Shown piece by piece: positions 15,487 to 61,310 of a DNA stretch of 64,000 nt (positions are counted from its first letter, which is position 1; every line of letters begins with the position of its first letter). Made by a program: the position numbers and the translations under genes. Origin of the DNA: an uncultured Alphaproteobacteria bacterium. GTDB taxonomy: Bacteria; Pseudomonadota; Alphaproteobacteria; GCA-2731375. Location of the stretch: NCBI GenBank assembly GCA_951812805.1, contig CATOSZ010000002.1, forward strand, positions 333,111-397,110, given 5' to 3'. The notes below the pieces were generated by a model. It had not been told where the DNA came from and made no database searches. It worked only from the letters and a program-made list of their open reading frames with translations.

Positions 15487-17037
15487 CTAGCAGCCTGTCG
15501 GACTCGGGCATGCAAGGATTGGTAAGATTGGCTTGGCGGGCGTCGATGTCATGGATTTACCCCCATGAAGTTGCGAACGCGGGTTGGCCCGCCCGTTCAG
15601 GCGTGGCTGAGGACGAACATCCGCTTGATGTTCCAGGAGAGCGTGGCCAAGGTCCATTCCCCCTTCGCCTTGTCGAGGCCGCGCAGGCTGAACTGACGCA
15701 AGCCCATCACCGATTTGATGATGCCGAACACCGGCTCCGGCGTCTGCTTGCGAAGCGCGTAGAGCGCCCGGCCCTCGGGTGTGGCCAGGCGATGGCACAT
15801 CGCCTCGAGCGGCGTCGGATCCTCGGGCGCTGGCGGCGCCTCGGCGAAGCGGTCCCGCCAGGAAAGATGGTGGTGCTCCCGGCCGAGCGCGATCAGCGGC
15901 GCGATCTCCGCTTCCCCGCAGGCCTCGACGTTGGCCTGGCTGAAGTAGCCGCTGTCCGCCAACAGGGTCTCGACCTCGCCAAGCCCGTCCGGCAGGCCGG
16001 CGAGTGCTTCGAGCGTCGGTTCGATCTGCTGCTTGTCGTTCGCCGCCTGCACCACGTCGGCGCTGACCACCAGCAGGCTGCCGGCGGCCACCGCAGCCTG
16101 GGCGTTGTAGCACTGCTCGAAGCCGCCGCCGGCCACCGGCATGATGCGCGAGTCCGGGTCCGTCAGGTTGACCTGGTCCTTCGCCCGTGGCCCCGGCTCC
16201 GGCGGCTTCGGTGGCCGCCCGCCCGGCTTGCGGCCGGTCCGCGTTTCCTTCGCCTCGCGGGCTGCCAGCTTCTCTTCGTACTCCGCCTGCTCCCGCGCAT
16301 GACGCTCGGCCGCCCGCGCCTCGATCTCCGCCTTCGCCGCGGCGATCGCCGCCAGCCGGTCCTCGCGCCGTGCCAGCTCCTCCGGCACGCTCATGCCGTC
16401 GGGAACCTCGGACCGGTCCGCCGCTTCCGCCAACGCCATCAACTCCGCCACCTCGGCCCGCAGCCGGGCTTCGATCTCGCCCGCACGCTGCCACGACAGG
16501 GCGCTGTGCCGGCTCGCGTCGGCATGGATCTTCGTCCCGTCCAGCGCCACCGTGCCCAGTTGCAGCATGCCGGCCTGCCGCGCCAGCAGCAGAACCTGCA
16601 CGAACAGCCCCTCGATCAGCGGCAGGAAGCGACGGCGGAACGTGGCGATCGTGTCGTGGTCGGGGTGGTCGTTTGCCGCGATGAAGCGGAAGGCCACCGA
16701 ATCATAGCTCGCCCGCTCCAGCTTCCGGCTGGAATGCACCCCCGTCGCGTAGCCGTAGATCAGCAGGCCCAGCAGGACGCTCGGGTGATGCGCCGCCGAG
16801 CCCGAACCACGATAGGCCTTCACGAACGCAGAGAGATCCAGCTGCTCCAGCACATCGACCACGAAGCGCGCCAGATGACGATCAGGCAGCCATTCGTCCA
16901 CCGAAGGCGGCAGAAGATAGCTGGTCTCCCGGTCAACCTGTCGAAAGTTGCTCATCACAAAATCACCGCGCAGGAGAGAATCAGACCGTGACAGTGAATC
17001 TCATCTCGAAACTCGGCTCAAGTCCGACAGGCTGCTA
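15487..17037 (-). mobile_element. IS1182-family insertion sequence, copy 1 (~1551 bp, transposase on minus strand)
   Basis: Identical to 59759..61310 in inverted orientation. Terminal inverted repeats CTAGCAGCCTGTCGGAC. CTAG at both junctions. Confidence 0.8.
15597..16958 (-). CDS. IS1182-family (DDE) transposase, 453 aa
   Basis: MMSNFRQVDRETSYLLPPSVDEWLPDRHLARFVVDVLEQLDLSAF... is the typical IS1182/IS5-superfamily N-terminus. It is 100% identical to ORF 59839..61200. Confidence 0.85.
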   Translation of the reverse strand: MMSNFRQVDRETSYLLPPSVDEWLPDRHLARFVVDVLEQLDLSAFVKAYRGSGSAAHHPSVLLGLLIYGYATGVHSSRKLERASYDSVAFRFIAANDHPDHDTIATFRRRFLPLIEGLFVQVLLLARQAGMLQLGTVALDGTKIHADASRHSALSWQRAGEIEARLRAEVAELMALAEAADRSEVPDGMSVPEELARREDRLAAIAAAKAEIEARAAERHAREQAEYEEKLAAREAKETRTGRKPGGRPPKPPEPGPRAKDQVNLTDPDSRIMPVAGGGFEQCYNAQAAVAAGSLLVVSADVVQAANDKQQIEPTLEALAGLPDGLGEVETLLADSGYFSQANVEACGEAEIAPLIALGREHHHLSWRDRFAEAPPAPEDPTPLEAMCHRLATPEGRALYALRKQTPEPVFGIIKSVMGLRQFSLRGLDKAKGEWTLATLSWNIKRMFVLSHA

Positions 17038-17900
17038 GAGAGGCGTTTAAGCTGCGTGGCGACCTCAGCCGCCGCAGCTTTGGCCGATACGACTTCGTCG
17101 TTCAGCCGCCACAAATCACAGAGCGCGGCCACGATCTCACCCAATCCGGTCGCCCTAGCCTTGCACGCGGTATCGCGGCGCATCGGGTTCCCGCCAGAAG
17201 ACGTCGTCAGCATCGCGTCGACGAAAACATCGAAATTTCTCGTCTGCAGACTGCACCCTTTCACGAGAGACTTCAGGCTTGTCCTGACCCTTACGCGTTG
17301 TTTTTCTGGCACGCTGCCAATCAAGGAGTTCTGGAGTTCGTCCCGCGCCGCATCGCTACGCAAGTGCCGAAAATCTTCGCAGGTCGGCGTACGGCCCCTT
17401 AGAATCGGCCGCAGATCCTCGAATGGTTTGTGCGCCGCAACTGCAAAAATCAACCGTGCCGATGCGATCGCCTTCGATAGCATCCTGACCTGCCCGACCC
17501 GAGAAATGCCCAGCTCGCTCAGGCGCGTTCGTAGAACGTCAAAGCTTCCGTGGCCCAGCACGGAACAGAGTTCATTTCCACGCGCGGTTGTCGAATCCTT
17601 GTAAAGATTGAAGAGTCCGCAGTCCGTTCTGGCCTCGCCGACCAAGGAAACGAAACTGTCCTTACCGCTGAGCAAGGCGATCTTGTCGACGGTATCCAGC
17701 TCGCTCTGCCGGAGTCGGCCCAAGCGTTCGCGTCTCGTCGCGGCGAAGACATCCAAGTCAACTTTCGCCAGTTCCGTCTTTGCCTTCGTGGCTTCTTCGT
17801 CCTTGGCCGCATCATACAGGATCGTGGATCCGCAGCCGGCCGTGAAAATCGTCAGCGCCATGCAGAACGCCAAGTTAAGTCTTCGCATCAGAACCCCCAC
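17038..17900 (-). pseudogene. 5' portion (N-terminal ~287 aa, with signal peptide and lipobox) of the IS-interrupted lipoprotein gene
   Basis: MGVLMRRLNLAFCMALTIFTAG|C lipobox. The ORF stop at 17001 lies inside the IS, so the last ~12 codons are IS-derived. Confidence 0.5.
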
Positions 17901-18103
17901 ATTTTATCAATTCCGCTATATAGATCAAGCCCTAGATAACACTCAACTACTCAATCCTAGCCGTTTGTTCCGTGATTGCAACCAAAATTATCCTATGTCG
18001 AAATCGAGATCTCGCTGCGGGTTGGACGCCGGTTCCGTGAATTCGGTGTTCCGTGGTGTCATGCGTGATATCGTTCATCGATCACGCGGGAGACGGCATC
18101 CTC

Positions 18104-19345: not shown

Positions 19346-19349
19346 CGAC

Positions 19350-20910: not shown

Positions 20911-20945
20911 GGCGGCGCTCTTCGGGGCGCCGCCGTTTTGCTGTC
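20911..20945 (+). terminator. Rho-independent terminator after the DUF4142 gene
   Basis: GGCGGCGGCGCTCTTCGGGGCGCCGCCG hairpin followed by TTTTGCTG. Confidence 0.5.
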
Positions 20946-21033
20946 CGGGTTTCCCCACGTCCACCTTTGCCGCGACCGAATTCGGTGTCATCGTGATCGG
21001 GGCGGCCTAATCCGGATTAGGAGTGGGGACGTG

Positions 21034-21894
21034 ATGTCATTTGTTTTTGCGGCCGTACGCCGGCCGGCGCGGGCGATCCTGCCGGCGATCGTGCTGCTGT
21101 TCGCCCTCGTCACGGCGCCCCTGGCCGCCGAGGTCGATTCGCGGCTCTTCAACGCCGCGCTCGCCGGCGACCTCGCCGGGGCGAAGCGCTTCCTGGAGAA
21201 CGGCGCCAAGGTCGACTTCGTGCATACGGGGCGCGGCACGGCGCTGATCGCCGCCGCCTACAAGGGGCATGACGATATCGTCGAGGTCCTGCTGGCCAAG
21301 GGCGCGTCGGTCGAGCTGACGGCGAAGAACCGCCTCAACGCCCTGGTCGTCGCCGCCGGCGGCGGCCATGTCGCCGTGGTCGAGCGGCTGCTGGCGGCGG
21401 GCGCCTCACCGGACGTCAAGGCCGCGCGTGGGGCGACCGCCCTCATCCTCGCCTCGGAAATCGGGCACGGCGCGGTGGTCGACGCCCTGCTGGCCGGGGG
21501 CGCGAACATCGAGGCCCGCGCCGAAGACGGCGCCACCGCCCTGCTGCAAGCCGCCTGGCACGGCCATCCGGGCATCGTCGCGGCCCTGCTCGCCAAAGGC
21601 TCGTCCCTCGACGTCGGCCTGAAGGACGGGACGGCACCGCTGGCCATGGCGGCGCAGCACGGCCGGGCCGGCATCGTCGACACCCTGCTGGCGGCGGGCG
21701 CGGCGATCGACGCGCAGAACAGCTTCGGCACCAGCGCGCTGATGTTCGCCGCGCAATCCGGCCACGTCGCCATCGTCGAAACGCTGCTGGCAAAAGGCGC
21801 GGACCCGAGCCTGTCGCTGAAGAACGGAACCACCGCGCACGGCCTGACAAAGGACGCGAAGATCAAGGCGCTGCTGGCGGCGGCGGGCGAGTAG
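21034..21894 (+). CDS. Secreted ankyrin-repeat protein (~7 repeats)
   Basis: MSFVFAAVRRPARAILPAIVLLFALVTAPLAA signal peptide, then tandem ...G.TALI.AA..GH..IVE.LL..GA... repeats. GGAG RBS before the ATG at 21034. Confidence 0.8.
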   Translation: MSFVFAAVRRPARAILPAIVLLFALVTAPLAAEVDSRLFNAALAGDLAGAKRFLENGAKVDFVHTGRGTALIAAAYKGHDDIVEVLLAKGASVELTAKNRLNALVVAAGGGHVAVVERLLAAGASPDVKAARGATALILASEIGHGAVVDALLAGGANIEARAEDGATALLQAAWHGHPGIVAALLAKGSSLDVGLKDGTAPLAMAAQHGRAGIVDTLLAAGAAIDAQNSFGTSALMFAAQSGHVAIVETLLAKGADPSLSLKNGTTAHGLTKDAKIKALLAAAGE

Positions 21895-22558: not shown

Positions 22559-24643
22559 TCAGTCCAGCTTGCGGATCCAGATCGCGTTGTCGTGGAAGGC
22601 GCCGCCGCCGATAGGGGCGACGGGGTCCGCGCCGGTGAGCGCGTTGATGCCGATCCCCTCCTCGAAGGCGGCGTTGGGCCACACGCTCTCGACGATGACG
22701 ACGCCCGGGCGGGCGCCGGCTTCGACCTCGACGTGGATCGCGACGTTACCCCGGTCGTTGCCGAGGCGGACGCGGTCGCCGTCGCGGACGTCCAGTGCCG
22801 CGGCGTCCGCCGGCGTGAGCTTCACGGTCGGCCGGCCCTCGCGCCGGATCGAGGTCGGCGTCTCGGTGAAGGACGAGTTCAGGTAGCTCCGCGCCGGCGC
22901 GGTCACCAGGCGATAGGGCTTTTCGGCCGTCTGATCCTCGATCACGTTCCAATGGTCCGGCAGGCGGGGGCGGGCGTCCTGCCAGCCCTCGGGGCCGAAC
23001 CTGCCGAAGCTCCAGCGTTCCCACTTCGGCGCGAAGTGAAACTTGCGGTCCGGATTGGCGAAGCCGTTCAGGTAATGCGCCGTCTCGAAATCGGGCTGGC
23101 AGTCGATCCAGCGCTTCTCCACCAGCTCGTCGAAGCCCGGATAGCCCGACGCCTTCAGCGTCCAGTCGCAGAGTTCCGCCGCGGTCATCTCGAAGCCCGG
23201 ATGGTCGGCGCCGAGCCGGCGGGCCAGCGCCGTCACCACCTCGTGGTTGGAGCGGCAGCCCTCCGGCGGGTCGACGACCTTCGGGCCGGCGATGACGTAT
23301 TGGTGGCCGCCGCCGTGGTAGATGTCGTCGTGTTCCAGGAACATGGTGGCGGGCAGCACGATGTCGGCCATCTTCGCCGTCTCGGTCATGAACTGCTCGT
23401 GCACGACGGTGAACAGGTCGTCGCGGGCGAAGCCGGGATGCACCTTGTTCGATTCCGGCGCGATCATCATCGGGTTGGTGTTCTGGATGAAAAGGGCGGT
23501 GACCGGCGGCCCATCCCAGAGCGCGTCCCGCTCGCCCATCAGGATCGGCCCGATCCGGGTCTGGTCGAGCACGCGGATCTCGCGGTCGCGCGCGTCCAGC
23601 CCCTCGATCATCGACTTGTCCCAGGTGAAGATCGAGCCGTTGTTGTGAAAGGCACCGCCGCCCTCGTATTTCCAGGCGCCGGTGACGGCGGCGATGGAAA
23701 GGGCGGCGTGCATGTTGAAGGCGCCGTTGCGATTGCGCGCGAAGCCGTAGCCGAGGCGGAAGAAGGTCCGCTTGGTTTCGCCCACCAGCTTGGCGAAAGC
23801 CTCGATCTCGGCGACCGGCACGCCGGTGATGGCCTCGGCCCATTCGGGCGTGCGGCTTTGCAAGTGGGCCTCCAGCTCCGCCGGGCAGTCGGTGTATTCG
23901 GCGAGGTAGTCCCGGTCGGAATGGCCGTCGCGGAACAGCACGTGCATGACCGCGCAGGCGAAGGCCCCGTCGGTGCCGGGCTTCAGGCAGATGTGGATGT
24001 CCGCCTGTTCGGCCGAGCCGGTGCGGTAGACGTCGACGACGGCGATTTTGGCGCCACGTTCCTTGCGGGCCCGGGTCGCGTGGGTCATGACGTTGACCTG
24101 GGTGTTCACCGGATTGGTGCCCCAGATCACCACCAGGTCGGACTTCGCCATCTCCCGCGGGTCGGCGCCGGCGAGCTTGCCGGTACCGGCGATGAAGCCG
24201 TTCCAGGCGAGCGTCGTGCAGATCGTGTTGTGCTGGCCGGAGTATTTCTTGACGTTGCGCAGCCGGTGGATGCCGTCGCGCATCACCAGGCCCATGGTGC
24301 CCGCATAGTAATAGGGCCAGACCGTCTCGGAGCCGAGCGCCTGTTCCGCCTTCAGCAGGCCTTCCGCCGCCGCGTCGAGGGCCTCGTCCCAGCCGATCGG
24401 CTGGAATTCGCCGCTGCCCTTGGGGCCGACGCGGCGCATCGGCCGGGTCAGGCGGTCGGGGTGGTGGATCCGCTCGGCATAGCGCGCGACCTTGGCGCAG
24501 ACGACGCCCGCCGTATAGTCGTTGTCCGCCGCGCCGCGCACCCGCCCGATCGTCGTCGCGTTCAGCCGCTCGACGTCCAGCGCGCAGGTGGACGGGCAGT
24601 CGTGCGGGCAGGCGCTGTGGCGAATTTCGGGCAAGGCGTTCAT
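22559..24643 (-). CDS. Molybdopterin (bis-MGD) oxidoreductase, single-subunit, with N-terminal 4Fe-4S Cys cluster (FdhF/NasA/YdeP-like)
   Basis: MNALPEIRHSACPHDCPSTCAL... The start was mapped to the ATG at 24641-24643, which has a GGAGGA RBS. The 1264-aa ORF is an upstream read-through artefact. Also contains ...VIWGTNPV..., a Mo-enzyme signature. Confidence 0.8.
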   Translation of the reverse strand: MNALPEIRHSACPHDCPSTCALDVERLNATTIGRVRGAADNDYTAGVVCAKVARYAERIHHPDRLTRPMRRVGPKGSGEFQPIGWDEALDAAAEGLLKAEQALGSETVWPYYYAGTMGLVMRDGIHRLRNVKKYSGQHNTICTTLAWNGFIAGTGKLAGADPREMAKSDLVVIWGTNPVNTQVNVMTHATRARKERGAKIAVVDVYRTGSAEQADIHICLKPGTDGAFACAVMHVLFRDGHSDRDYLAEYTDCPAELEAHLQSRTPEWAEAITGVPVAEIEAFAKLVGETKRTFFRLGYGFARNRNGAFNMHAALSIAAVTGAWKYEGGGAFHNNGSIFTWDKSMIEGLDARDREIRVLDQTRIGPILMGERDALWDGPPVTALFIQNTNPMMIAPESNKVHPGFARDDLFTVVHEQFMTETAKMADIVLPATMFLEHDDIYHGGGHQYVIAGPKVVDPPEGCRSNHEVVTALARRLGADHPGFEMTAAELCDWTLKASGYPGFDELVEKRWIDCQPDFETAHYLNGFANPDRKFHFAPKWERWSFGRFGPEGWQDARPRLPDHWNVIEDQTAEKPYRLVTAPARSYLNSSFTETPTSIRREGRPTVKLTPADAAALDVRDGDRVRLGNDRGNVAIHVEVEAGARPGVVIVESVWPNAAFEEGIGINALTGADPVAPIGGGAFHDNAIWIRKLD

Positions 24644-24769
24644 GGCTCTCGTTCCTCCGGCAGGGCGCGAGCGACAACATGTCGCCGAATGCGGGTGGTG
24701 GCAAGGGCGACGATGGATCGGCTGCGGGGGGCGGGCTAATCTCGGGCGGCGAAACGTCGGGAGGGGAAG

Positions 24770-40798: not shown

Positions 40799-40874
40799 AA
40801 CGTCGCAACTGGACAAGCGGGCCGCCGGGCGGGATAGTTCGCGCCCCAGGGTGGCACTTCGCGGGAGGTCAGCC

Positions 40875-48500: not shown

Positions 48501-49076
48501 TCAGGCGTGGCCCGCGTCCAGGGAGAGGAAGGAGGGGTCGATGCCCATCTTCTTGATCGAACGGGCCCATTTCCCTTCCAGGTCATCGTCGAACACCAAC
48601 TCGACGTCGGAATCGACGTGCAGCCAACCGTTCGCCTGGATCTCGGTGTCGAGCTGGCCGGGCGCCCAACCGGCATAGCCGAGCGCCAGCATGCTCTCCC
48701 GCGGCCCCTCGCCCGAGGTGATGGATTTCAGGATATCGGCCGTCGCGGTCAGGCCGAAGGCATCGTCCACCATCAAGGTCGATTCCTGGGAGTAGTCGGT
48801 GGTGTGCAGGACGAAGCCGCGCCCGGTTTCCACCGGTCCGCCGTTGTGCACGTTGATCTCGCGGCGCAGTTCCGGCACCTCGATCTGCAACTGCTGCAGC
48901 AGTTCGCGGAAATTCACCTGGTCGGCGATCTGGTTGACGATCAGCCCCATCGCGCCCTGCTCGGAATGGGCGCACATGTAGATGACGCTGCGCTGGAAAC
49001 GCTCGTCCCCCATCGACGGCATGGCGATCAGAAGCTGGCCGTCGAGATAGCCTGATGTGGTCTGGTAACTGCTCAT
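48501..49076 (-). CDS. yqgE: YqgE/AlgH family protein (UPF0301)
   Basis: [48 protein letters not shown]... is the canonical YqgE. Confidence 0.85.
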
Positions 49077-50213: not shown

Positions 50214-50699
50214 ATGACGATCAAAGCCGGCGACACCATGCCCGAGGGGCAGTTCATGACGATGACCGACGAGGGACCGAAGCCGGTCACGTCCGCCGAG
50301 CTGTTCGGCGGCAAGACCGTCGTGCTGTTCGGCCTGCCGGGCGCCTTCACGCCGACCTGCTCGAACAGCCACCTGCCGGGCTATATCCAGAACGCCAGCG
50401 CCCTGAAGGGCAAGGGCGTCGACACCATCGCCTGCATGAGTGTCAACGACGCCTTCGTCATGGGCGCCTGGGGCAAGGACCAGGGTGCCGGCGACGCGGT
50501 GATGATGCTGGCCGACGGCAGCGCCGACTATGCGAGCGCGATGGGCCTGAACCTCGACCTGACGGCCCGCGGCATGGGCATGCGCGCCACCCGCTTCTCG
50601 ATCCTGGTCGAGAACGGCGTCGCCAAGGCGGTGAACGTCGAGGAAAACCCGGGCGTCGCCGAGGCCACCGGCGCCGACACGATGCTGGGCCAGGTCTGA
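50214..50699 (+). CDS. Peroxiredoxin, Prx5/type-II subfamily
   Basis: ...VVLFGLPGAFTPTCS... peroxidatic Cys motif, 161 aa. Confidence 0.85.
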   Translation: MTIKAGDTMPEGQFMTMTDEGPKPVTSAELFGGKTVVLFGLPGAFTPTCSNSHLPGYIQNASALKGKGVDTIACMSVNDAFVMGAWGKDQGAGDAVMMLADGSADYASAMGLNLDLTARGMGMRATRFSILVENGVAKAVNVEENPGVAEATGADTMLGQV

Positions 50700-50752: not shown

Positions 50753-50757
50753 CGTCG

Positions 50758-52359
50758 CTACGCCGCGTCCTCGCGCATCATGTCCGAGCATTTCTCGCCG
50801 ATCATGATGCAGGGACCGTTGGTGTTGCCGGAGATCAGGGTCGGCATGATCGAGCCGTCGGCGACGCGAAGACCTTTCAGGCCGTGCACGCGGAGACGGT
50901 CGTCGACCACCGCCATCGGATCGTTGCCCATCTTGCAGGTGCCGACGGGGTGATAGGCCGTCTCGGAGCTGCGGCGGATGAAGTCGAGGATCTCGTCGTC
51001 GCTCTGTACTTCCGGGCCCGGCGCGATTTCCGGCCCGCGGAAGTCGTCCATCGCCTGCGTCTCGATCACCTCGCGGGTCTTGCGCACGCCGTCGATCAGG
51101 GTGCGCCGGTCATGCTCGTTCGAGAGGAAGTTGAAACGGATCTCCGGATGCACCATTGGATCGGCCGAAGCGATATGGATCGAGCCGAGGCTTTCCGGGC
51201 GCAGCATGTACATGGCGATGGTCATCCCGGGATCGGGGCCGAGCTCGCGCGTCTTGCGCAGGATCGCATGGAAGGGCACGAAATGCAGCTGGATGTCCGG
51301 TGTCGCCAGCTCCGGCCGGGTCTTCAGGAAACCCAGCACGGGCGCCGAGGGCAGGTTCAACAGGCCCTGGCGATTGATCGCATAGCGCAGAATTTGCAAT
51401 CCGAGCTTCCAGCCCCGCGCGGTGTCGTTGTAGACCACACCCCGCTTGGCGATCCGCCAGACTAGGCGCGGCGCCATGTGGTCGCGCAGGCTTTCGCCGA
51501 CGCCGGCGAGTTCGTGGCGCACCTCGATGCCGTGGCGTTGGAGGACCTCCGGCCGCCCGATGCCTGAAAGCTCCAGCAGCTGCGGCGAGGCGATGGCGCC
51601 CGCGCACAGCACCACCTCGCGCCCGGCCCGCGCCACCCGGGGCTGGCCGGCGACGTCGTATTCGATGCCGACGCAGCGCTTGCCCTCCAAGATCAGTTTG
51701 CGGCCGAGCGCCCGGGTTTCGATCGTCAGGTTCGAGCGATGGCGCGCCTCGCGCAGATAGCAGTAGTCGGCGCTCATCCGCCGGCCCTTGCGGATGGTCG
51801 TCTGGGTGCGGACGATGCCTTCCTGGGTGTCGCCGTTGTAGTCGTCGTTGGGGGCGAGGCCGATCTCCCGGCCGGCGGCGAAGAGGGCGTCGTAGAGCGG
51901 GCTCTGGTCGACGGCTTCGCTGACGTGCAACGGTCCACCCTGGGCGCGGAAATCGTCCGTGTGGTGTTCGTAGTTCTCCATGCGCCGGAAGACGGGCAGC
52001 ACGTCGTCGAAGCTCCAGCCCCGGTTGCCGAGCTGCGCCCAGGTGTCGTAGTCGAGCTGCTGGCCGCGCACGAAGACCAGGCCGTTGATCGAACTGGAGC
52101 CGCCGAGCACGCGGCCGCGCGGCACCGGGATCCCGCGCCCGTCGGTGCTCTCCTCGGCCTCCGCCCGGTAGCACCAGTTGGCGGCGGGATTGTCGATCAG
52201 CTTGGAATAGCTGATGGGAATGCGCGAGAGGGGGTGCTGCTCCGGCCCCGCCTCCAGCAGCAGAACGGAATACCGGCCGTCCTCGCTCAACCGGCTGGAG
52301 AGCGCGCAGCCAGCCGAACCGCCGCCGACCACGATGAAGTCATATTCACGACCATTCAT
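50758..52359 (-). CDS. GMC-family FAD oxidoreductase (choline/alcohol dehydrogenase-like), second paralogue
   Basis: MNGREYDFIVVGGGSAGCALSSRLSED... The start was chosen at the internal ATG. Confidence 0.85.
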   Translation of the reverse strand: MNGREYDFIVVGGGSAGCALSSRLSEDGRYSVLLLEAGPEQHPLSRIPISYSKLIDNPAANWCYRAEAEESTDGRGIPVPRGRVLGGSSSINGLVFVRGQQLDYDTWAQLGNRGWSFDDVLPVFRRMENYEHHTDDFRAQGGPLHVSEAVDQSPLYDALFAAGREIGLAPNDDYNGDTQEGIVRTQTTIRKGRRMSADYCYLREARHRSNLTIETRALGRKLILEGKRCVGIEYDVAGQPRVARAGREVVLCAGAIASPQLLELSGIGRPEVLQRHGIEVRHELAGVGESLRDHMAPRLVWRIAKRGVVYNDTARGWKLGLQILRYAINRQGLLNLPSAPVLGFLKTRPELATPDIQLHFVPFHAILRKTRELGPDPGMTIAMYMLRPESLGSIHIASADPMVHPEIRFNFLSNEHDRRTLIDGVRKTREVIETQAMDDFRGPEIAPGPEVQSDDEILDFIRRSSETAYHPVGTCKMGNDPMAVVDDRLRVHGLKGLRVADGSIMPTLISGNTNGPCIMIGEKCSDMMREDAA

Positions 52360-52436
52360 GCCATGGTTCCCCCCCACCCCGAATTCCGCCGTAATACTAC
52401 CAGCCCGTCGGAAGGGAGCCGAGGGGTGGCATGGGA

Positions 52437-55400
52437 TTATCCGCCCCATCGCAGGAGGGTCGTGTTGCCATATCCGATATCGCGCGCGATCAGACCCTCG
52501 AACCGGCCTGCCGGCAGCTCGACGATCCGGCCGAGATTTGGTTCGTAAAACCGGACATGTGTGATGATATCGTCCGCGTCGGCGACGATCTCTGTGACGG
52601 CGACGGCATGGTATTCACTTTCCAGTTTCAGAATCATCTTCACATCGTAGTCATTGCTCAGGGCCGTGCGGATGGCGCGCAGATTGATCCTTCCATTGTT
52701 CGACGGATCCAGCTCGGAGATCTTGGCCCCCAATGTCTGGGCGTATTCGCGCATTATCTTGTTGCTCGCCCCAAGCTCGGAAATGATTTCACCCAGTTCG
52801 GATGCGCTCAGCTGTTCATAGGGTGTGGCTTCGGCTTTCGTGCGAACCCCCTGCGTCACCTCGCGCCGTGCCTGTTTGAGCTTTATCCGCGCCGCGCGTC
52901 GGAGTCCGTCAACCTCGGAAATCAGGCGGCCGAGGCGTTTGTTCACGAGATAGTTGGTGGTCATGAGATTGCAGGTACCGCCCGCTTGGGGGCTGAAGAG
53001 CCTCGGGCCGCCTTCGTCGATGATCCGCACATTGTCGCCGTACAATGCCCGTGCCGTCGCCAGATCGCCCCCGGCGCCGGTGAGGTCGAGCTCATCGAGG
53101 AAGATGCCGTCTCCGGGCGCCGCCCGGCGGGGCGCGGCACAGACGGGGCTCCCCGTTCCCGGCGGGTCGCCCGCAAACCGCACGCGCGTCTGCGGCGCCT
53201 GACTGCTTTTCACCGAGCCGGGCAGGTCCGCCGTCACCCCCCCGGCCCCCTCGACCCCGGCCACGCGACGACCCTTGCCGGCGACATCGATCGTCTCGTT
53301 CGCGATCACCGGGGCACCGAGTCGATGGACGGCGGCGCGCGGGCCGCTGGCGCCGAAGCTGCGTGAAAGCCTGGCGCTGTTGAGATGGAGGAGCGTCTGT
53401 GATCCCAGGCCCACCGCAATCATCACGCGCCGCCATTTCGGTTGACGCTTGCCGAACTGATCCTTGCCGGTCAACAGCAGATAGAAATCGCCGGCCCCGG
53501 TGGCGCCGACATAGCCGTCGTACAATCCGAAGACGCCTTTCTCCGCTGCGATCCGAACGGCAGACGACGCCACGTCGGCGCTGGTATCGGCGATGACATA
53601 GCGCGCCAGCGCAGCCTCCGCCGGCGATGTCCAGGGGATCCGGTCCGCGGTCCCGATCGCATTGTTCCCGAGAGCTTCGCCGGTAATGCCTTCGAGGAAC
53701 GCCTGCATCAGCGGATTGAAGTAGCTGCCGTCGCGACGCGGTCGCGTGAGTGCGGTCGCCAGCGCCCTCATCTGCTCATCGGACATTTGCACGATCGAGG
53801 CTGCTCCGAGCACACTGCCGGCATAGCGCACCGGCGGCGCATCCTCGCCGAGATAAAGCTCACCGAGATTGTACTTGTGAAGGTCGGTGAGCTGCTCCGA
53901 TTGGCGCAGGCTCCAGTAGTTGGAGAGCTGCAGCCGCTTGCGATGCGCCGCCTCCTTCTGCGCCGGGGTGGGCGACGGCGAAGCGATAATGCCGGCATAA
54001 ATCGCCCCCAGTCGTTCAAAGCCCTGGCGATGGCGTACAAGGCCACGCTGAACCCAGGTGTCGTAGACGGGCAGGCGCTGGTAGGCGTCGCCAAAACGAA
54101 ACTCGACCACCTCGGCGTTATCGACGTCGATATCGAGCCGGGTTCCCTCGGCGCCGAAAATGCGCGCCAGCGAACCGAATGGCGGCGTCCGCTCACCCCC
54201 GGATCGTCGATCGGCGAGGCTTGCGGCCGCGACATGGGAATAGGTGACCGGGCGCAAGCCCACAGATCCAGCCGCCGTGAGCTCGAGCGTCGTCCCGTTG
54301 CCGGATCCAAGCGCCTTCACCTCCACCGTCAGGCTGGAGCCTTGTTCTTTCGCGACATCGTAGGGAAGGGTGACCTTCACCGTGAAGGTCTGATGCTTCA
54401 TCAGAGCTTCGAGCGGATGGGTCGCCGGATCGTGATCGGGGCGATTGAGGCCGACGCGAAGCACCGGCCGGGACCAGGTTTCGATGTCCAGACCCTCGTC
54501 CTTGGCCAGTTCGAAGCGAAGGGGCGTACCGTCACCATCGACCCAGGCCTCGCCCTCGCCCGCACCCCCATCGCCCTCACGCCAGCGCACCCGCCCGGGA
54601 TACCATTTCATCGAATAGCGCGGATCCGCCTCCGAACCGGCCTCGTCCAGCTCGATACGCCATTCGAGTTTGCCGTTTACCTGCTCGCGGGCCCATTGCG
54701 GGATGGCGCCGTTCATTTCATCGGGTATCGGTTTGTAGGTGAAGGTAACCCGGCCCTCGAGATTGCCGCGGCTCGGGTCGCCAACCTCGGAAGAGTGATA
54801 GTTGCCCTTCCAGACCCGGGTCTGCGTATGCGCCTCCAACCTGTTCGGGTAGGCCTCGAAATCAGGATCTTCCTGCACGATGACGAAGGGCCAGTCGCCG
54901 TCTTTCGTTGGTCGCCAAACACCGAGGGTTTTCGTCAACGACATCTTGAACGGCGCCGTTTCCTCCGGTTCCCCGACAGCCGTTTCGCGGTCGTCGGGGG
55001 GTGGCGGTGGCTTGTAGGCGATGATCGCCTTCAACCGGATTAACAAACCCTCGCCGTCCGCGAGTTTCGACGCGATCCGCTGGACGTCCGCCTCTTTCTC
55101 GCTTGCCGATGCGGCGTGCCGCTCGGCGCGGGCCGTACCGGCCGCGGCGTCACGGGCAAATTCCGCCGCCGATTTCGCGAACGTCGCCCGCGTGGCCTCG
55201 GCGTAGGTCCCGTTCCGCGCCTCGCGGCGCCAATGGTCCGCCCGCTCGCGGTTTGCCGCCGCATCGCTGCGCGCAGCGGCTTCGAGCGCGCGATAATCCT
55301 CCGCCTGCCTCCTGGCCGTCGCCAAGGCTGCGCGCTCATCGCCGAATTGCTCGTGCAGCCGGTCCCGTAGCGCCGCAGCCCGCGCTTTCGCCTGCCCCTG

Positions 55401-55559
55401 GTCGCGCCGCACTTCCGCTTCGAGGCGCGTAACCGCACGACTCTCCAATTCAAGCGACCGCGCGGTGGCGGCGTCGGGCAGCAACAACGTCAATAGGATG
55501 GCAAACGCCAGTTGACCGGCAGCCCGCGCCGTGGAGACGAGGCAACTGGTTGCGGTCAT
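52437..55559 (-). CDS. Large secreted hypothetical protein (1040 aa): signal peptide, ~150-aa Ala/Arg coiled-coil, poly-Pro linker, beta-rich core, C-terminal putative Cys/His module ending ...LLRWGG
   Basis: MTATSCLVSTARAAGQLAFAILLTLLLPDAATA signal. Arg/Ala/Glu heptad-like N-terminal region. ...PQAGGTCNLMTTNYLV... then ...EYHAVAVTEIVADADDIITHV... near the C-terminus. No recognisable family by eye. Confidence 0.55.
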   Translation of the reverse strand: MTATSCLVSTARAAGQLAFAILLTLLLPDAATARSLELESRAVTRLEAEVRRDQGQAKARAAALRDRLHEQFGDERAALATARRQAEDYRALEAAARSDAAANRERADHWRREARNGTYAEATRATFAKSAAEFARDAAAGTARAERHAASASEKEADVQRIASKLADGEGLLIRLKAIIAYKPPPPPDDRETAVGEPEETAPFKMSLTKTLGVWRPTKDGDWPFVIVQEDPDFEAYPNRLEAHTQTRVWKGNYHSSEVGDPSRGNLEGRVTFTYKPIPDEMNGAIPQWAREQVNGKLEWRIELDEAGSEADPRYSMKWYPGRVRWREGDGGAGEGEAWVDGDGTPLRFELAKDEGLDIETWSRPVLRVGLNRPDHDPATHPLEALMKHQTFTVKVTLPYDVAKEQGSSLTVEVKALGSGNGTTLELTAAGSVGLRPVTYSHVAAASLADRRSGGERTPPFGSLARIFGAEGTRLDIDVDNAEVVEFRFGDAYQRLPVYDTWVQRGLVRHRQGFERLGAIYAGIIASPSPTPAQKEAAHRKRLQLSNYWSLRQSEQLTDLHKYNLGELYLGEDAPPVRYAGSVLGAASIVQMSDEQMRALATALTRPRRDGSYFNPLMQAFLEGITGEALGNNAIGTADRIPWTSPAEAALARYVIADTSADVASSAVRIAAEKGVFGLYDGYVGATGAGDFYLLLTGKDQFGKRQPKWRRVMIAVGLGSQTLLHLNSARLSRSFGASGPRAAVHRLGAPVIANETIDVAGKGRRVAGVEGAGGVTADLPGSVKSSQAPQTRVRFAGDPPGTGSPVCAAPRRAAPGDGIFLDELDLTGAGGDLATARALYGDNVRIIDEGGPRLFSPQAGGTCNLMTTNYLVNKRLGRLISEVDGLRRAARIKLKQARREVTQGVRTKAEATPYEQLSASELGEIISELGASNKIMREYAQTLGAKISELDPSNNGRINLRAIRTALSNDYDVKMILKLESEYHAVAVTEIVADADDIITHVRFYEPNLGRIVELPAGRFEGLIARDIGYGNTTLLRWGG

Positions 55560-55583
55560 GACGCCTCCAAGGACGTGGCCCGC

Positions 55584-56954
55584 CTAGTCTTCGTCCGGCG
55601 CGGTCAATTCGACGGAATCGATAAAGAACAACGTCTCGCCGCTGGTCTTCTTGTTCTGGGCGACCGTCATGAAGATGCCGCCGGGAAGCCGGAGGGACGA
55701 AATGGCGTCGGTCTCATGAACGACCGGTTTGCCACTTTTATCCACAGCACCCTCGACCGTCAGCCGCGCGGAGAATTTGCGCCCGTCACGGACGAGGCTC
55801 AGCGTCATGGGACTGGTGATGGTTTGCGCAAAATTTGAAAATTGCCTATCCGGCGGGCAGACATTGCATTTCATGGCCCGGACTGTTTTTGAAAACTTCG
55901 TGGCTTTTCCCTTACTCGACTTTATGACTTGTAAAATTAGCTTGTGGCCATAATTCTTATTTCCCGAGGTGAAGAGGCGTGCGGCCAACCAGTTCTTGGC
56001 GTCCTTGCGCATGCCAAGCCAGATGCCTTCTTTCTGAGTCTGGTATTCTGCCTGAACCGTTGCCGATAACACCCAGTTGCTTTTTGGGGGCTTCACGTCG
56101 AGGCCAAAAAGGTTCGGTGTCTTCTTCCCATCGAAGCCGCCGGTTGTTCCAGCTACCATCAACAACTTATCATCCTCGACGATGAAGGCGTCGGGATCTG
56201 GATTGGTAACCGCCCATGCGCCGTTCAACTCGTCAACGGAGAAGTCGTCCTCGAATACGGTTTTGATCTTCGGCGCCGGCTTTGCGGCAACGACGGTTTC
56301 CTTTTTGACGGCCGCCAATGCCACTTCCAATGCGCCGGCATTCGCAGCGTCGTAATACTTTCCGTTCCCCCGCTCGGCGATGCATTCGAGTTGTGCGCGT
56401 TGATCCTTTCCGATGTCGAAGCCGACGACGTGAACCCGCGTATTGATATCGTCTTGCGCCAGTTTCGCCGCTTCCGCGCAAGGATCGCCACCACAGGTCT
56501 CGATACCGTCGGAAACCAGGACGATGCTGCGTGTGGTGTCGCTATCGGCGAGCATCGCGCCGGCGGCGGCGATCGCCGCGGCGATCGGTGTCTTTCCCAA
56601 AGGCGTGATAGCGCCGATCTTGCTCCGAATCGCATCTGTCGCATCGACGCCGATCGCGGAAAGAACTTCGATATCATCGCAGTCGGTCTTTGAGCGATGA
56701 CCATAAGCAACGATGCCGAGTTGCGTGCCGCCGGCGAGATCACCAACCAGGCCGGACAGCATTAATTTTGCCGTCTCAATCTTTGCGACGCCCTCGATTT
56801 GACCCCACATCGAGTTGGAACCGTCGACAATTAGAACGGTTTGAGCGGCGTTTGCCAGGACAGCCGCCGGTGCCGCCGTCGACAACAAGAGGGCGGCGGC
56901 AATCGTCCTGGTCATCACGCCGATACGTTTGTAATTCCTGGCCATCACACGCAT
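55584..56954 (-). CDS. Secreted von Willebrand factor type A (vWA) domain protein with MIDAS motif
   Basis: Signal peptide. ...VLIVDGSNSMWGQ... (DxSxS) ...IVLVSDGIETCGGDPC.... Its stop is 25 nt upstream of the 1040-aa gene start, in local ~50% GC sequence. Confidence 0.75.
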   Translation of the reverse strand: MRVMARNYKRIGVMTRTIAAALLLSTAAPAAVLANAAQTVLIVDGSNSMWGQIEGVAKIETAKLMLSGLVGDLAGGTQLGIVAYGHRSKTDCDDIEVLSAIGVDATDAIRSKIGAITPLGKTPIAAAIAAAGAMLADSDTTRSIVLVSDGIETCGGDPCAEAAKLAQDDINTRVHVVGFDIGKDQRAQLECIAERGNGKYYDAANAGALEVALAAVKKETVVAAKPAPKIKTVFEDDFSVDELNGAWAVTNPDPDAFIVEDDKLLMVAGTTGGFDGKKTPNLFGLDVKPPKSNWVLSATVQAEYQTQKEGIWLGMRKDAKNWLAARLFTSGNKNYGHKLILQVIKSSKGKATKFSKTVRAMKCNVCPPDRQFSNFAQTITSPMTLSLVRDGRKFSARLTVEGAVDKSGKPVVHETDAISSLRLPGGIFMTVAQNKKTSGETLFFIDSVELTAPDED

Positions 56955-57023
56955 CCCAGCCTATATTTCTTTCTAAGATAGCATTATCGAATGCTTCTGG
57001 AAGTTTACCCGCCAACCCGTTAC

Positions 57024-58254
57024 CCGGCAAGGCGCAGGGGAATCGCATTTGGAATTGCCTTGACGTGCGTGTTTGATCTTGAGGTATTGGCGCGAATCGA
57101 TTCTACCCGGTCTTTTCACGGGTGGAGGTTGCGATGGAAGGCTTTCTGGAGTGCTTTGAGGGTCTCGAGGATCCGCGGACTGGCAATGCCGGGCGTCACG
57201 ATCTGCTGGAGATCTTGACGATCGCCCTGTGCACGGTCCTCTCGGGCGGTCAGACGGCGGTCGACATGGCGATCTTCGCGCGTGAAAAGGAGGCGTTCCT
57301 GCGGGAATTTCTCGTACTCGAACATGGCGTGCCGAGCCACGACACCTTCAGCCGGGTGTTCCGGTTGCTGGATCCGGAGGCGTTCGGCGCCTGCTTCCAG
57401 CGCTTCATGGCGCGCTTTTCCGAGACCTGCCAAGGGGTCATTGCGATCGACGGCAAGGTGGTGCGGCGATCCTACGACAAGGCGAGCGGCACGTCGGCGC
57501 TGCATATGGTCTCGGCCTGGGGCTGTGATCAGCGGCTGGTGTTGGGGCAAGTCGCCACCGACGCCAAGTCCAACGAGATCACCGCCGTGCCGAAGCTGTT
57601 GAAACTATTGAGCCTCGAGGGGACGATCGTGACCGTGGACGCCCTCAATTGCCAGCGCGCCATCGCCAGCCAGATTATCGAGCAGGGGGGTGACTACGCC
57701 CTGGCGTTGAAGGGCAATCAAGGCACGCTGCATGACGACGTGAGAACCTTCCTCGACGATCCGAAAGCCGAAGCGACCACCACCGACACCACGGTCGATG
57801 GCGATCATGGCCGCATCGAGACCCGTGCCGCTCTCGTCTCCAGCCACGTCGAGTGGCTGCAAGAGCGCCATCATTGGCCGGGCCTGAAGGCGGTCGCCAA
57901 AGTCACCCGGACCCGCGAGTGCGCGGAGAAGACGTCGAGCGAAACCGCCTACTACCTGCTCAGCCAGCCGCTCGACGCCGAGCGCTTCAATCCCGTTGCC
58001 CGGGCGCACTGGGGGGTCGAAAACCGCCTGCACTGGTGCCTCGATGTCCAAATGAACGAAGACCAAGACAGAACCCGCAAGGACAATGGACCGCACAATC
58101 TCGCCGTCCTGCGCCACATGGCGCTCAATGTCATGCGAAAGGATCCACGAAAAGACTCGCTGCGCGCCAAGTTCAAAATCGCCGCTTGGAACAACGACTA
58201 TCTCCTGTCACTCCTCGGCAAATTCTGAAATGCGATTGCCCTGCGGCAAGGCGG
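57024..58254 (+). mobile_element. ISAs1-family insertion sequence (~1.23 kb)
   Basis: Imperfect ~27-bp terminal inverted repeats (CCGGCAAGGCGCAGGGGAATCGCATTT ... AAATGCGATTGCCCTGCGGCAAGGCGG) flank an ISAs1 transposase gene. Boundaries are approximate. Confidence 0.5.
57122..58228 (+). CDS. ISAs1-family transposase (H-repeat associated protein-like), 368 aa
   Basis: ...FLECFEGLEDPRTGNAGRHDLLEILTIALCTVLSGGQTAVDMAIFAR... and the DDE region ...TVDALNCQRAIASQIIEQGGDYALALKGNQ... are diagnostic of ISAs1 transposases. Confidence 0.85.
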   Translation: MEVAMEGFLECFEGLEDPRTGNAGRHDLLEILTIALCTVLSGGQTAVDMAIFAREKEAFLREFLVLEHGVPSHDTFSRVFRLLDPEAFGACFQRFMARFSETCQGVIAIDGKVVRRSYDKASGTSALHMVSAWGCDQRLVLGQVATDAKSNEITAVPKLLKLLSLEGTIVTVDALNCQRAIASQIIEQGGDYALALKGNQGTLHDDVRTFLDDPKAEATTTDTTVDGDHGRIETRAALVSSHVEWLQERHHWPGLKAVAKVTRTRECAEKTSSETAYYLLSQPLDAERFNPVARAHWGVENRLHWCLDVQMNEDQDRTRKDNGPHNLAVLRHMALNVMRKDPRKDSLRAKFKIAAWNNDYLLSLLGKF

Positions 58255-58286
58255 AATCGGTCGGACGATCAGGCGGGAGATACCCG

Positions 58287-59762
58287 ATGTTTGGGTTCAA
58301 GGGCGTGTGGCCATTGGCAATTTTGGCGATGTTCGCCTGGGACGTCGCGGCGGCGGAACAGGTTCCGCAGGATCTGGCGTCCCTGGCCGCGCGGCTTTAC
58401 CGGCTGTCGGGCGACGAGCTCGCCAAAGCCGGCGACGATGTCGAGAGCCACGCGGCGGCTCGGCTGGCCGGCGGCGCCATCCGGCGCGCCGGCGTGGGCT
58501 ATTGGGCCCGCGACAACGTGACGGTCGAAGGCGCCGGCGCCCGGGCAGCGAAGCTGTTGGGGCTCGACCTCGGCAAGCCCGGACACCGCGCCGAGCTCGC
58601 CCGATTGCTCAATCTATCGAGTGGCGAGCTGCGAGAGGCTTTGTCGGCGCGCCGACCGGAACTCGACGCGGCGTCGCTCGATGACCTGGCCAACAGCCTC
58701 GCCGCCACCCGCACGCCTGCGGACTTGGAAACCCGTCACACGATCGATCTTGGAGACGGCGAGACGGTGGAAATTTCCTGGGACACGGAGAGCGGAGAGG
58801 TTCTGGTTCGCGCGCGTTCGGATGGGACCGGCGAGACGCCGGCCTACGACGTCTCCCTGCTGGGCGGCGCGGAACTGCAAGTGGAACCCGATAGCGGGGA
58901 TCTACGCACAGCGCTGCGCAGCAACCCGGAAGAGGCGGTCCGCGTGCTTTCGGCCAGTGATCTCGAGCATTTACGCGGTTCCATTCTCGGCGATTGGCGG
59001 GCGGCAAACGGCGATGTCTATACGATTGGCGCCGGCGACGATGCGGCCGGTGACATCACGATCGCCGCGCAAGATTACAGCCAGCTGATCGAGGATGCCC
59101 AAGCGCAGCTCGAGACGCTCGAGCAGGCTATCGAGTATGTCTGGGAAAATTCGCAAACAGGCGGTATTCGCCGCCAGGAACGCTTTCGCCGGCTCGAAGA
59201 CCCATGGATCTACAAGGGCGAGGAGCAGCTCGGCGCGGCGGACATTGCACGTCTGGAGCAGCGAATAGCGGAACTCGAGGCGAAGCAGGCGGGCGCGGGC
59301 CTGCCACCGGTTCTCCGCCATGACCCGGTTGGACATGGCGAAAACCGCCAGGCGAATGGCGCGCGCGCCATTAGAATCGCGGTGCGCCGGTCCGACGGCT
59401 ACGGGTATTCCTATGATGATGCTTCCTTCAACGGCAGGACCGTCACGGCGCGGCGCACATACCGCGATGTCCGCGATATCGACCGGGATTTGCCGGAAAC
59501 GATAAAACAGCAGCTTATCGCCTCGTGGGCGCCGCCAAGCTGGCTGGAGCTGCAAGCGAGCTTCGATCCCACAACGGGGGAGGTACGAATGGTCGGCAAG
59601 AGATGGTTCTTGCACGTCACTTACGGCGGCGGTGGATTCTTCGGCGATGGCGCGGCGAAAGTTAAGAACCTGAATACGCCGTACGCCCGCCCTCTCAATC
59701 TTGGTAAGGACGGCGTGCGGACCCGCGTCGCCATGGGTGCCGCGGCCGATGCCGTTCCCTAG
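58287..59762 (+). CDS. Secreted acidic hypothetical protein (491 aa). Its stop codon lies in the CTAG junction of IS1182-family copy 2
   Basis: MFGFKGVWPLAILAMFAWDVAAA signal peptide. GGGAGA RBS. It ends ...AADAVP-TAG, where the TAG is part of the CTAG at the IS boundary. Confidence 0.5.
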   Translation: MFGFKGVWPLAILAMFAWDVAAAEQVPQDLASLAARLYRLSGDELAKAGDDVESHAAARLAGGAIRRAGVGYWARDNVTVEGAGARAAKLLGLDLGKPGHRAELARLLNLSSGELREALSARRPELDAASLDDLANSLAATRTPADLETRHTIDLGDGETVEISWDTESGEVLVRARSDGTGETPAYDVSLLGGAELQVEPDSGDLRTALRSNPEEAVRVLSASDLEHLRGSILGDWRAANGDVYTIGAGDDAAGDITIAAQDYSQLIEDAQAQLETLEQAIEYVWENSQTGGIRRQERFRRLEDPWIYKGEEQLGAADIARLEQRIAELEAKQAGAGLPPVLRHDPVGHGENRQANGARAIRIAVRRSDGYGYSYDDASFNGRTVTARRTYRDVRDIDRDLPETIKQQLIASWAPPSWLELQASFDPTTGEVRMVGKRWFLHVTYGGGGFFGDGAAKVKNLNTPYARPLNLGKDGVRTRVAMGAAADAVP

Positions 59763-61310
59763 CAGCCTGTCGGACTTGAGCCGAGTTTCGAGATGAGATT
59801 CACTGTCACGGTCTGATTCTCTCCTGCGCGGTGATTTTGTGATGAGCAACTTTCGACAGGTTGACCGGGAGACCAGCTATCTTCTGCCGCCTTCGGTGGA
59901 CGAATGGCTGCCTGATCGTCATCTGGCGCGCTTCGTGGTCGATGTGCTGGAGCAGCTGGATCTCTCTGCGTTCGTGAAGGCCTATCGTGGTTCGGGCTCG
60001 GCGGCGCATCACCCGAGCGTCCTGCTGGGCCTGCTGATCTACGGCTACGCGACGGGGGTGCATTCCAGCCGGAAGCTGGAGCGGGCGAGCTATGATTCGG
60101 TGGCCTTCCGCTTCATCGCGGCAAACGACCACCCCGACCACGACACGATCGCCACGTTCCGCCGTCGCTTCCTGCCGCTGATCGAGGGGCTGTTCGTGCA
60201 GGTTCTGCTGCTGGCGCGGCAGGCCGGCATGCTGCAACTGGGCACGGTGGCGCTGGACGGGACGAAGATCCATGCCGACGCGAGCCGGCACAGCGCCCTG
60301 TCGTGGCAGCGTGCGGGCGAGATCGAAGCCCGGCTGCGGGCCGAGGTGGCGGAGTTGATGGCGTTGGCGGAAGCGGCGGACCGGTCCGAGGTTCCCGACG
60401 GCATGAGCGTGCCGGAGGAGCTGGCACGGCGCGAGGACCGGCTGGCGGCGATCGCCGCGGCGAAGGCGGAGATCGAGGCGCGGGCGGCCGAGCGTCATGC
60501 GCGGGAGCAGGCGGAGTACGAAGAGAAGCTGGCAGCCCGCGAGGCGAAGGAAACGCGGACCGGCCGCAAGCCGGGCGGGCGGCCACCGAAGCCGCCGGAG
60601 CCGGGGCCACGGGCGAAGGACCAGGTCAACCTGACGGACCCGGACTCGCGCATCATGCCGGTGGCCGGCGGCGGCTTCGAGCAGTGCTACAACGCCCAGG
60701 CTGCGGTGGCCGCCGGCAGCCTGCTGGTGGTCAGCGCCGACGTGGTGCAGGCGGCGAACGACAAGCAGCAGATCGAACCGACGCTCGAAGCACTCGCCGG
60801 CCTGCCGGACGGGCTTGGCGAGGTCGAGACCCTGTTGGCGGACAGCGGCTACTTCAGCCAGGCCAACGTCGAGGCCTGCGGGGAAGCGGAGATCGCGCCG
60901 CTGATCGCGCTCGGCCGGGAGCACCACCATCTTTCCTGGCGGGACCGCTTCGCCGAGGCGCCGCCAGCGCCCGAGGATCCGACGCCGCTCGAGGCGATGT
61001 GCCATCGCCTGGCCACACCCGAGGGCCGGGCGCTCTACGCGCTTCGCAAGCAGACGCCGGAGCCGGTGTTCGGCATCATCAAATCGGTGATGGGCTTGCG
61101 TCAGTTCAGCCTGCGCGGCCTCGACAAGGCGAAGGGGGAATGGACCTTGGCCACGCTCTCCTGGAACATCAAGCGGATGTTCGTCCTCAGCCACGCCTGA
61201 ACGGGCGGGCCAACCCGCGTTCGCAACTTCATGGGGGTAAATCCATGACATCGACGCCCGCCAAGCCAATCTTACCAATCCTTGCATGCCCGAGTCCGAC
61301 AGGCTGCTAG
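59759..61310 (+). mobile_element. IS1182-family insertion sequence, copy 2 (~1552 bp), inverted relative to copy 1
   Basis: Same terminal inverted repeats (CTAGCAGCCTGTCGGAC...). Identical transposase and identical antisense ORFs. CTAG at both junctions. Confidence 0.8.
59839..61200 (+). CDS. IS1182-family transposase (identical to 15597..16958)
   Basis: 453 aa, 100% identical in sequence to the copy-1 transposase. Confidence 0.85.
   Translation: MMSNFRQVDRETSYLLPPSVDEWLPDRHLARFVVDVLEQLDLSAFVKAYRGSGSAAHHPSVLLGLLIYGYATGVHSSRKLERASYDSVAFRFIAANDHPDHDTIATFRRRFLPLIEGLFVQVLLLARQAGMLQLGTVALDGTKIHADASRHSALSWQRAGEIEARLRAEVAELMALAEAADRSEVPDGMSVPEELARREDRLAAIAAAKAEIEARAAERHAREQAEYEEKLAAREAKETRTGRKPGGRPPKPPEPGPRAKDQVNLTDPDSRIMPVAGGGFEQCYNAQAAVAAGSLLVVSADVVQAANDKQQIEPTLEALAGLPDGLGEVETLLADSGYFSQANVEACGEAEIAPLIALGREHHHLSWRDRFAEAPPAPEDPTPLEAMCHRLATPEGRALYALRKQTPEPVFGIIKSVMGLRQFSLRGLDKAKGEWTLATLSWNIKRMFVLSHA

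Follow-up and report, generated by a model that had tools for sequence, protein, structure and literature searches.

A 64,000-nucleotide window on contig CATOSZ010000002.1 of an uncultured alphaproteobacterium (all positions given here refer to this whole stretch) carries two copies of an insertion sequence (IS) of the IS1182 family, copy A and copy B, which lie in inverted orientation to each other and are bordered by the tetranucleotide CTAG at every end. The picture that very probably applies is that of two independent, recent insertions of an active, CTAG-targeting IS1182 element, with the 42.7-kb interval between them in its un-inverted form. Whether the flanking CTAG is the terminus of the element or a palindromic 4-bp target duplication had been left open in the original prediction; the evidence compiled here favours the target duplication, because a single CTAG remains in the empty state of three different sites, those of copy A, of an identical copy in another assembly (L086) and of a more distant relative (L074).

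Copy A extends from 15487 to 17038 and copy B from 59759 to 61310, the flanking CTAGs being counted in both. Aligned base by base as reverse complements, the two copies match at all 1552 of 1552 positions, and the homology ends exactly at the outer CTAGs of both, with 0 further matching bases on either side. The element measures 1552 bp with both flanking CTAGs and 1544 bp without them, and its terminal inverted repeat is perfect over 18 bp (CTAGCAGCCTGTCGGACT) if CTAG is included and over 14 bp if it is not. The initial description, i.e., identical inverted copies about 42.7 kb apart with perfect repeats of at least 17 bp and CTAG adjoining all four element sides (15487–15490, 17035–17038, 59759–59762 and 61307–61310), is borne out by these measurements; only the end of copy A, which had been placed at 17037, lies one base further. 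The segment between the copies comprises 42,720 bp (17039–59758). As the identity spans 1.55 kb, chance is of no concern for this pair. A search of the window for solo IS ends and transposase remnants returned the four true ends and one degenerate end-like sequence (52397–52425), and nothing else.

The site of copy A is informative since the element splits a gene. Deletion of 1548 bp, with one CTAG kept, fuses positions 17900–17039 to 15486–14673 and creates a minus-strand open reading frame (ORF) of 555 amino acids, whereas the frame is lost if all 1552 bp are deleted. The joined protein is colinear with P0001, a protein of 567 residues, at 45% identity and 99% coverage, and the alignment crosses the copy A junction without a gap (LKRLSREIAQAEG vs. 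LKALAKEIADAKG). At L086 the element interrupts the istB gene of an IS21 element. Here, excision that leaves one CTAG is the only one that yields a full IstB, covering positions 3–237 of the 238 in PF01695 in one stretch, and removal of 1552 or 1544 bp breaks the istB frame. In the case of L074, a relative with 72% identity, one contig holds the target in two 100% identical versions, one filled and one uninterrupted, and the homology arms of the two overlap by exactly CTAG. When 67 relatives at 67 distinct sites were compared, CTAG was present on the right in 66–67 and on the left in 63–65 cases (two tallies differ slightly); all 67 sites are CTAG or a one-base variant of it, the bases beyond CTAG vary, and the core of the terminal repeat, CAGCCTGTCGGAC, is kept across the relatives. 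The invariance of CTAG at both ends of nearly all relatives could equally be expected if CTAG were the terminal tetranucleotide of an element that inserts without any target duplication. This explanation is almost certainly wrong, as removal of 1552 bp breaks the frame at both copy A and L086, the empty site of L074 keeps one CTAG, and a CTAG at 61374 that is empty in the window and in the related locus L087 is occupied in another one, L085.

Several points weigh against the account given so far or blur its detail. Three sites show variants on the left side only, namely CTAA (L001), TTAG (L031) and ATAG (L039), with CTAG on the right in each; such one-sided variants are unexpected for a strict 4-bp duplication unless later mutations or sequence errors in the metagenome-assembled genomes (MAGs) intervened. 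Empty versions of sites A and B were not found in two metagenome scans in which a gap of 0–8 nucleotides was allowed, and because no empty site from a near-identical genome was recovered, the evidence for site A consists of the restored frame and the 45% identical homologue. Gene conversion or consensus polishing of metagenomic repeats could explain part of the perfect identity of the copies. Finally, a 4-bp stagger, a 2-bp TA stagger and a blunt cut look alike because CTAG is palindromic.

This last point is of consequence for the interpretation of the element ends. IS630 targets CTAG and duplicates the TA. If the element studied here acted in the same way, only the central TA would be duplicated, the outer G...C would be the true element termini, and the 4-bp duplication would be merely apparent. 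At a CTAG target, the sequence outcome would be identical to that of a 4-bp duplication, and L031 (TTAG/CTAG) as well as L039 (ATAG/CTAG) would fit G and C residues carried by the IS next to an off-consensus target. We nevertheless consider duplication of TA only unlikely: it does not predict CTAA on the left in L001, mutation or sequencing error may account for the three variants seen in the 67 MAG-derived sites, and the related element IS5 makes genuine 4-bp YTAR duplications (PMC5009759). By analogy with IS5, a stagger of 4 bp is the favoured size.

With respect to the history of the pair, the flanks of the copies point to separate, recent simple insertions. One gene is split between the two flanks of copy A, and composite transposition, inverting replicative transposition and a net homologous inversion are therefore ruled out as origins of the arrangement. 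A composite transposon of the Tn5 or Tn10 kind, whose inverted IS pair moved the 42.7-kb segment as a unit, would have the formal compound architecture on its side, two identical inverted copies bracketing a segment. In such a case, the outer flank of copy A should match the outer flank of copy B; instead, the flanks of copy A itself rejoin, the interval holds core chromosomal genes, and its right end is syntenic with the outside gene ispG in IS-free relatives, all of which makes this origin hardly conceivable. The relatives in question (L087 and L089, with IspG 93% identical and without an IS at this place) carry, roughly 130 bp upstream of ispG, a GMC oxidoreductase gene that is read from the other strand. 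The window's orthologue of this gene (50762–52361, 85.6% identity at the nucleotide level) is part of the interval, and it is oriented in the same way relative to ispG, which is situated outside. The contiguous flanks of copy A and the arrangement of the GMC oxidoreductase gene and ispG, which matches that in L087 and L089, thus indicate that the window shows the ancestral orientation. GC skew across the window was too weak to indicate orientation.

Inversions classically produce inverted IS pairs and also act on them, and the interval might on these grounds already have been inverted, or copy B might stem from an inverting intramolecular replicative transposition, so that the window would present the flipped isomer. 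We regard this as very improbable, since the two gene halves would then be separated, yet both adjoin copy A, and the order and orientation of the GMC oxidoreductase gene and ispG are as in L087 and L089. An artefact of assembly, either a mis-join across an identical multi-copy IS or copies homogenized by polishing, also deserves attention given that the source is apparently a draft or metagenome contig of 424,119 nucleotides and that the IS is multi-copy, its exact transposase occurring on 18 contigs. It is, however, very improbable in view of the gene continuity that validates both copy A junctions, of the two sides of copy B, which are part of a locus with outer genes that are neighbours in relatives, and of an independent assembly that carries a 100% identical copy. 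When inverted IS copies recombine, the segment in between is turned around, with a copy left at each end, and short read pairs are blind to such an inversion (PMC5009759). Inversion of the 42.7-kb interval by RecA-dependent homologous recombination would be possible.

Recent transposition had originally been proposed from the identity of the two copies, and it gains support from two further findings. The copy at L086, in a separate ENA assembly, is identical at 1552 of 1552 positions, and 18 public contigs, of up to 2.4 Mb, carry the exact transposase of 452 amino acids. Taken with the copies in the window, these records fit a recent, ongoing expansion of an element that is probably still active.

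IS1182 elements have a size of about 1.3–1.95 kb, a single ORF and terminal inverted repeats, and the element described here, with 1544 bp, one ORF and perfect 14-bp repeats, fits this layout. Its transposase passes the NCBIfam IS1182 model NF033551 (356.5 bits, cutoff 270) and fails all three NCBIfam IS5 models (64, 17 and 16 bits with cutoffs of 140, 110 and 275, respectively), in agreement with the family named at the outset. Membership in the IS5 family was rejected on the basis of these three scores, the resemblance to IS5 being limited to the kind of target and of duplication. The Pfam domains detected are DUF772, DDE_Tnp_1 and DDE_Tnp_1_6. IS630/Tc1-mariner was likewise rejected, as the Pfam and NCBIfam matches are exclusively to DUF772, DDE_Tnp_1 and IS1182; here the likeness is confined to the target. 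In an alignment of the transposase with ten relatives (65–81% identity), D139, D334 and E407 as well as the motif Y399-R402-E407-K414 are invariant, and these residues fall within the Pfam DDE_Tnp_1 and DDE_Tnp_1_6 regions. They are candidates for a catalytic role, and their invariance makes the transposase look intact. The 453-residue ORF noted earlier is indeed the same in both copies when read from a GTG codon; the 452-residue form starting with ATG is the more likely transposase, because it is the only form in public protein collections and because ISAzo1 starts at the equivalent residue.

ISAzo1, an IS1182 element on plasmid 2 of Aromatoleum aromaticum EbN1 (NC_006824.1, 83237–84789), is the closest named relative that we reached. 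Like the element in the window, it has a single transposase of 452 residues (65% amino acid identity, aligned without gaps), about equal length and CTAG on both sides, and the core of its terminal repeat (CAGCGTGTCGGAC vs. CAGCCTGTCGGAC here) differs at one position. It differs in nucleotide sequence (72.5% identity over 81% of the length) and in its location on a betaproteobacterial plasmid, whereas the copies in the window are chromosomal. According to ISfinder convention, two elements count as the same IS at roughly at least 95% amino acid or at least 90% nucleotide identity. Identity with ISAzo1 or an isoform of it was rejected, 65% and 72.5% being far below these levels: the elements belong to the same clade and are different. 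By sequence comparison, both copies are assigned to an ISAzo1-like clade of the IS1182 family, characterized by a length of about 1544 bp, 14-bp repeats and a single DDE transposase. The element may be an unnamed IS, since ISAzo1, the nearest named relative reached, is only 65% identical. The literature on ISAzo1 gave no target data; the matches concerned ISAzo11 and ISAzo13.

A scan with one genome per species returned at least 545 stretches that encode a relative of the transposase, mostly in alphaproteobacterial MAGs, and the best relative among the matches listed shares 81% amino acid identity. Unnamed IS1182 elements in such MAGs (CBDDBU01, for instance, with over 20 copies and 81% amino acid identity) have the same repeats, CTAG flanks and multi-copy expansion; they differ in amino acid sequence (70–81% identity) and size (1500–1770 bp, measured from outer base to outer base of the two 14-nucleotide end motifs). 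Among characterized elements, IS5 duplicates a 4-bp TA-centred target, 5'-YTAR-3', which includes CTAG (PMC5009759). It has a related DDE transposase, as judged by the weak NCBIfam IS5 matches, and the same 4-bp type of duplication; the element described here is longer and its target is essentially limited to CTAG. Some members of the IS1182 family, to which IS1272 of staphylococci also belongs, have been described as targeting palindromic sequences (PMC5678879). IS1272 is reported to replace stem-loops without target duplication, in contrast to the duplication of a short palindrome here. ISPsy36, an IS1182 element from Pseudomonas syringae pv. actinidiae, is also reported to use a palindromic tetranucleotide and to strike the same site repeatedly; unlike in the present case, the reported target is GGCC and the element measures 1666 bp (PMC8027508). 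A preprint on an 'IS5/IS1182' element was set aside, as it deals with a different 1-kb element from E. coli. The copies in the window represent a known IS clade, with a target preference of an already known kind (palindromes, GGCC in ISPsy36, YTAR in IS5).

In the mechanism that we propose, the transposase would recognize palindromic CTAG in the target DNA and most likely make staggered cuts 4 bp apart, repair of the gaps then leaving a CTAG on either side of the element; cuts staggered by 2 bp, at the TA within CTAG, would yield the identical sequence. Copy A would have landed in a CTAG within a hypothetical gene, the first of a three-gene operon, and disrupted it, and copy B, 136 bp upstream of ispG, in the CTAG that contains the stop of a hypothetical ORF. 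The resulting perfect inverted repeats of 1.55 kb would be a substrate for RecA-dependent inversion; the sequence in hand is the un-inverted form.

CTAG is the most depleted tetranucleotide of the window: base composition predicts 195 occurrences and a Markov model 54, compared with 15 observed. Four of these 15 adjoin the IS copies, two of them having been made by the insertions. Several of the remaining ones, including 17932, 17957 and 61374, are intergenic. The first two had been reported as lying in an AT-rich region at about 17920–17990; both sites are present, in an intergenic stretch with 45% G+C. Two more CTAGs close to the elements, at 17155 and 61374, had not been listed before. In L085, where IspG is 97% identical, a related IS (83% nucleotide identity) abuts with its end the CTAG equivalent to 61374 and has the opposite orientation. 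With copy B in the window and a related IS in L085, the region upstream of ispG has been hit independently in related genomes.

We consider it rather doubtful that the ISAzo1-like clade represents an essentially absolutely CTAG-specific DDE transposon in hosts in which CTAG is the rarest tetranucleotide. If this were true, each insertion would remake two targets and thereby lead to nesting and to tandem arrays such as the IS-CTAG-IS arrangement at L076, recurrent hot spots would arise at the few intergenic CTAGs, e.g., upstream of the essential ispG, and the inverted pair could make the 42.7-kb segment switch back and forth continually between two isomers in the source population. A strict requirement for CTAG would offer a clean natural data set on sequence-specific DDE targeting and resembles the known behaviour of IS5/IS1182. 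Beyond annotation, the finding is of little importance: what is now fixed is where the apparently unnamed IS ends, that it targets CTAG and to which family it belongs. The inverted pair is a likely point of inversion or mis-assembly, which should be flagged when these genomes are assembled or compared. Added to what had been noted previously are the duplication of a CTAG target, the exclusion of composite and inversion origins, the ancestral orientation, the third copy and the recurrent hot spot.

Table 1. Coordinates of the insertion sequence copies, their parts and the genes and sites next to them
Feature	Position	Strand	Remarks
IS copy A, 1552 bp	15487–17038	- (transposase strand)	reverse-complement identity to copy B
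Copy A, left terminal inverted repeat	17021–17038	.	transposase-start side; includes CTAG 17035–17038; 18-bp perfect repeat with 15487–15504
Copy A, right terminal inverted repeat	15487–15504	.	includes CTAG 15487–15490
Copy A, transposase gene	15597–16955	-	452 aa from ATG; GTG one codon upstream (16958) gives 453 aa
IS copy B	59759–61310	+	terminal repeats 59759–59776 and 61293–61310
Copy B, transposase gene	59842–61200	+	452 aa; 453-aa ORF from GTG is 59839–61200
Chromosomal interval between the inverted copies, 42,720 bp	17039–59758	.	ancestral orientation; GMC oxidoreductase/ispG order as in L087 and L089
Gene split by copy A (hypothetical protein, about 555 aa), N-terminal part	17039–17900	-	in-frame join to 14673–15486
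Gene split by copy A, C-terminal part	14673–15486	-	in-frame join to 17039–17900
Downstream operon ORF	14096–14686	-	196 aa
Downstream operon ORF	13677–14018	-	113 aa
Hypothetical ORF next to copy B	58287–59762	+	491 aa; G+C at third codon positions 0.75; no Pfam match; TAG stop inside left CTAG of copy B
Unoccupied CTAG site, 63 bp past the end of copy B	61374–61377	.	empty and conserved in L087 and L089
ispG	61447–62571	+	identical to P0002; Pfam GcpE

Copy A is predicted to inactivate the first gene of a small, rare three-gene operon (13677–17900, minus strand). The two downstream ORFs of 196 and 113 residues parallel in size and order the genes for proteins of 195 and 115 residues that follow the gene for P0001 (L081–L083), and P0001 represents the only homologous family of the split gene among 5.8 billion protein clusters. 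No Pfam match is on record for any of the three operon proteins. The interrupted gene has a G+C content of 58–59% and the operon stretch one of about 0.60–0.63, compared with 67% for the whole window.

Copy B breaks no coding sequence, because its CTAG supplies the TAG stop of the hypothetical ORF 58287–59762. The gene for IspG starts 136 bp downstream of copy B, and the copy B transposase reads toward it. Between the transposase stop and ispG there is no terminator-like site, and a scan around copy B revealed no promoter-like site and one terminator-like hairpin, which is located within the transposase gene, on the other strand. Any effect of copy B on the expression of ispG is speculative.

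The surroundings of the element in related genomes show a number of peculiar structures. Upstream of ispG in L085 (7008–9931), four or more transposase genes form a nest, in which two left ends of a related IS1182 element face each other (7008–7082 and 9425–9931) with another IS in between; rearrangement or mis-assembly may be behind this structure. At L076 (4483–4513), two copies of a relative (72% amino acid identity) are arranged head to tail and share one CTAG (GTCCGACAGGCTG-CTAG-CAGCCTGTCGGAC). The pair could have arisen by insertion into a CTAG regenerated beside an existing copy, or it could represent a junction of the tandem-dimer or circle type; an assembly artefact is also possible, the second copy reaching the contig end. 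In a single MAG (CAVOKY01; L027, L034 and L046), the repeated target CCCGTTCGGCTAC-CTAG-GCAGTAAC is occupied in both orientations at different places, which is independent reuse of one CTAG-containing repeat.

In the window itself, a strain-specific block of about 9 kb (52362–61373) separates the GMC oxidoreductase gene from ispG, the two being about 130 bp apart in L087 and L089. It contains an ORF of 1040 residues without Pfam match, an ISAs1-type transposase gene, the hypothetical ORF of 491 residues and IS copy B, and the homology to the relatives resumes at most 3 nucleotides from the conserved CTAG at 61374, to the right of the block. The degenerate end-like sequence at 52397–52425 (CTACCAGCCCGTCGGAAGGGAGCCGAG) agrees with the left end of the IS (CTAGCAGCCTGTCGGACTTGAGCCGAG) at 21 of 27 bases; it is located about 40 bp from the point at which synteny with L087 breaks, and no transposase remnant follows it. 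An older related IS may have left this end behind as a relic, at the left border of the block. The ISAs1-type transposase gene (57122–58228, plus strand, 368 amino acids), which lies 1.5 kb from copy B and is unrelated to the IS1182 element, has the corresponding architecture of Pfam DDE_Tnp_1_assoc and DDE_Tnp_1.

The interval between the copies had been described as containing housekeeping genes such as trkH, apaG, yqgE and a peroxiredoxin gene, and Pfam searches confirm ApaG (40758–41267), TrkH (41302–42750), an AlgH/YqgE-like protein (48501–49076) and a redoxin (50214–50699). It also harbours two paralogous genes for GMC oxidoreductases (24788–26344 and 50762–52361), which are inverted relative to each other and have diverged to 71–79% nucleotide identity. 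A minus-strand ORF (22559–26353) is probably a molybdopterin oxidoreductase gene artificially fused to the antisense of the first of these paralogues. A bacterial ankyrin-repeat protein of 318 residues is encoded at 20938–21894 on the plus strand, and its 99-nucleotide repeats appear as a family of direct repeats.

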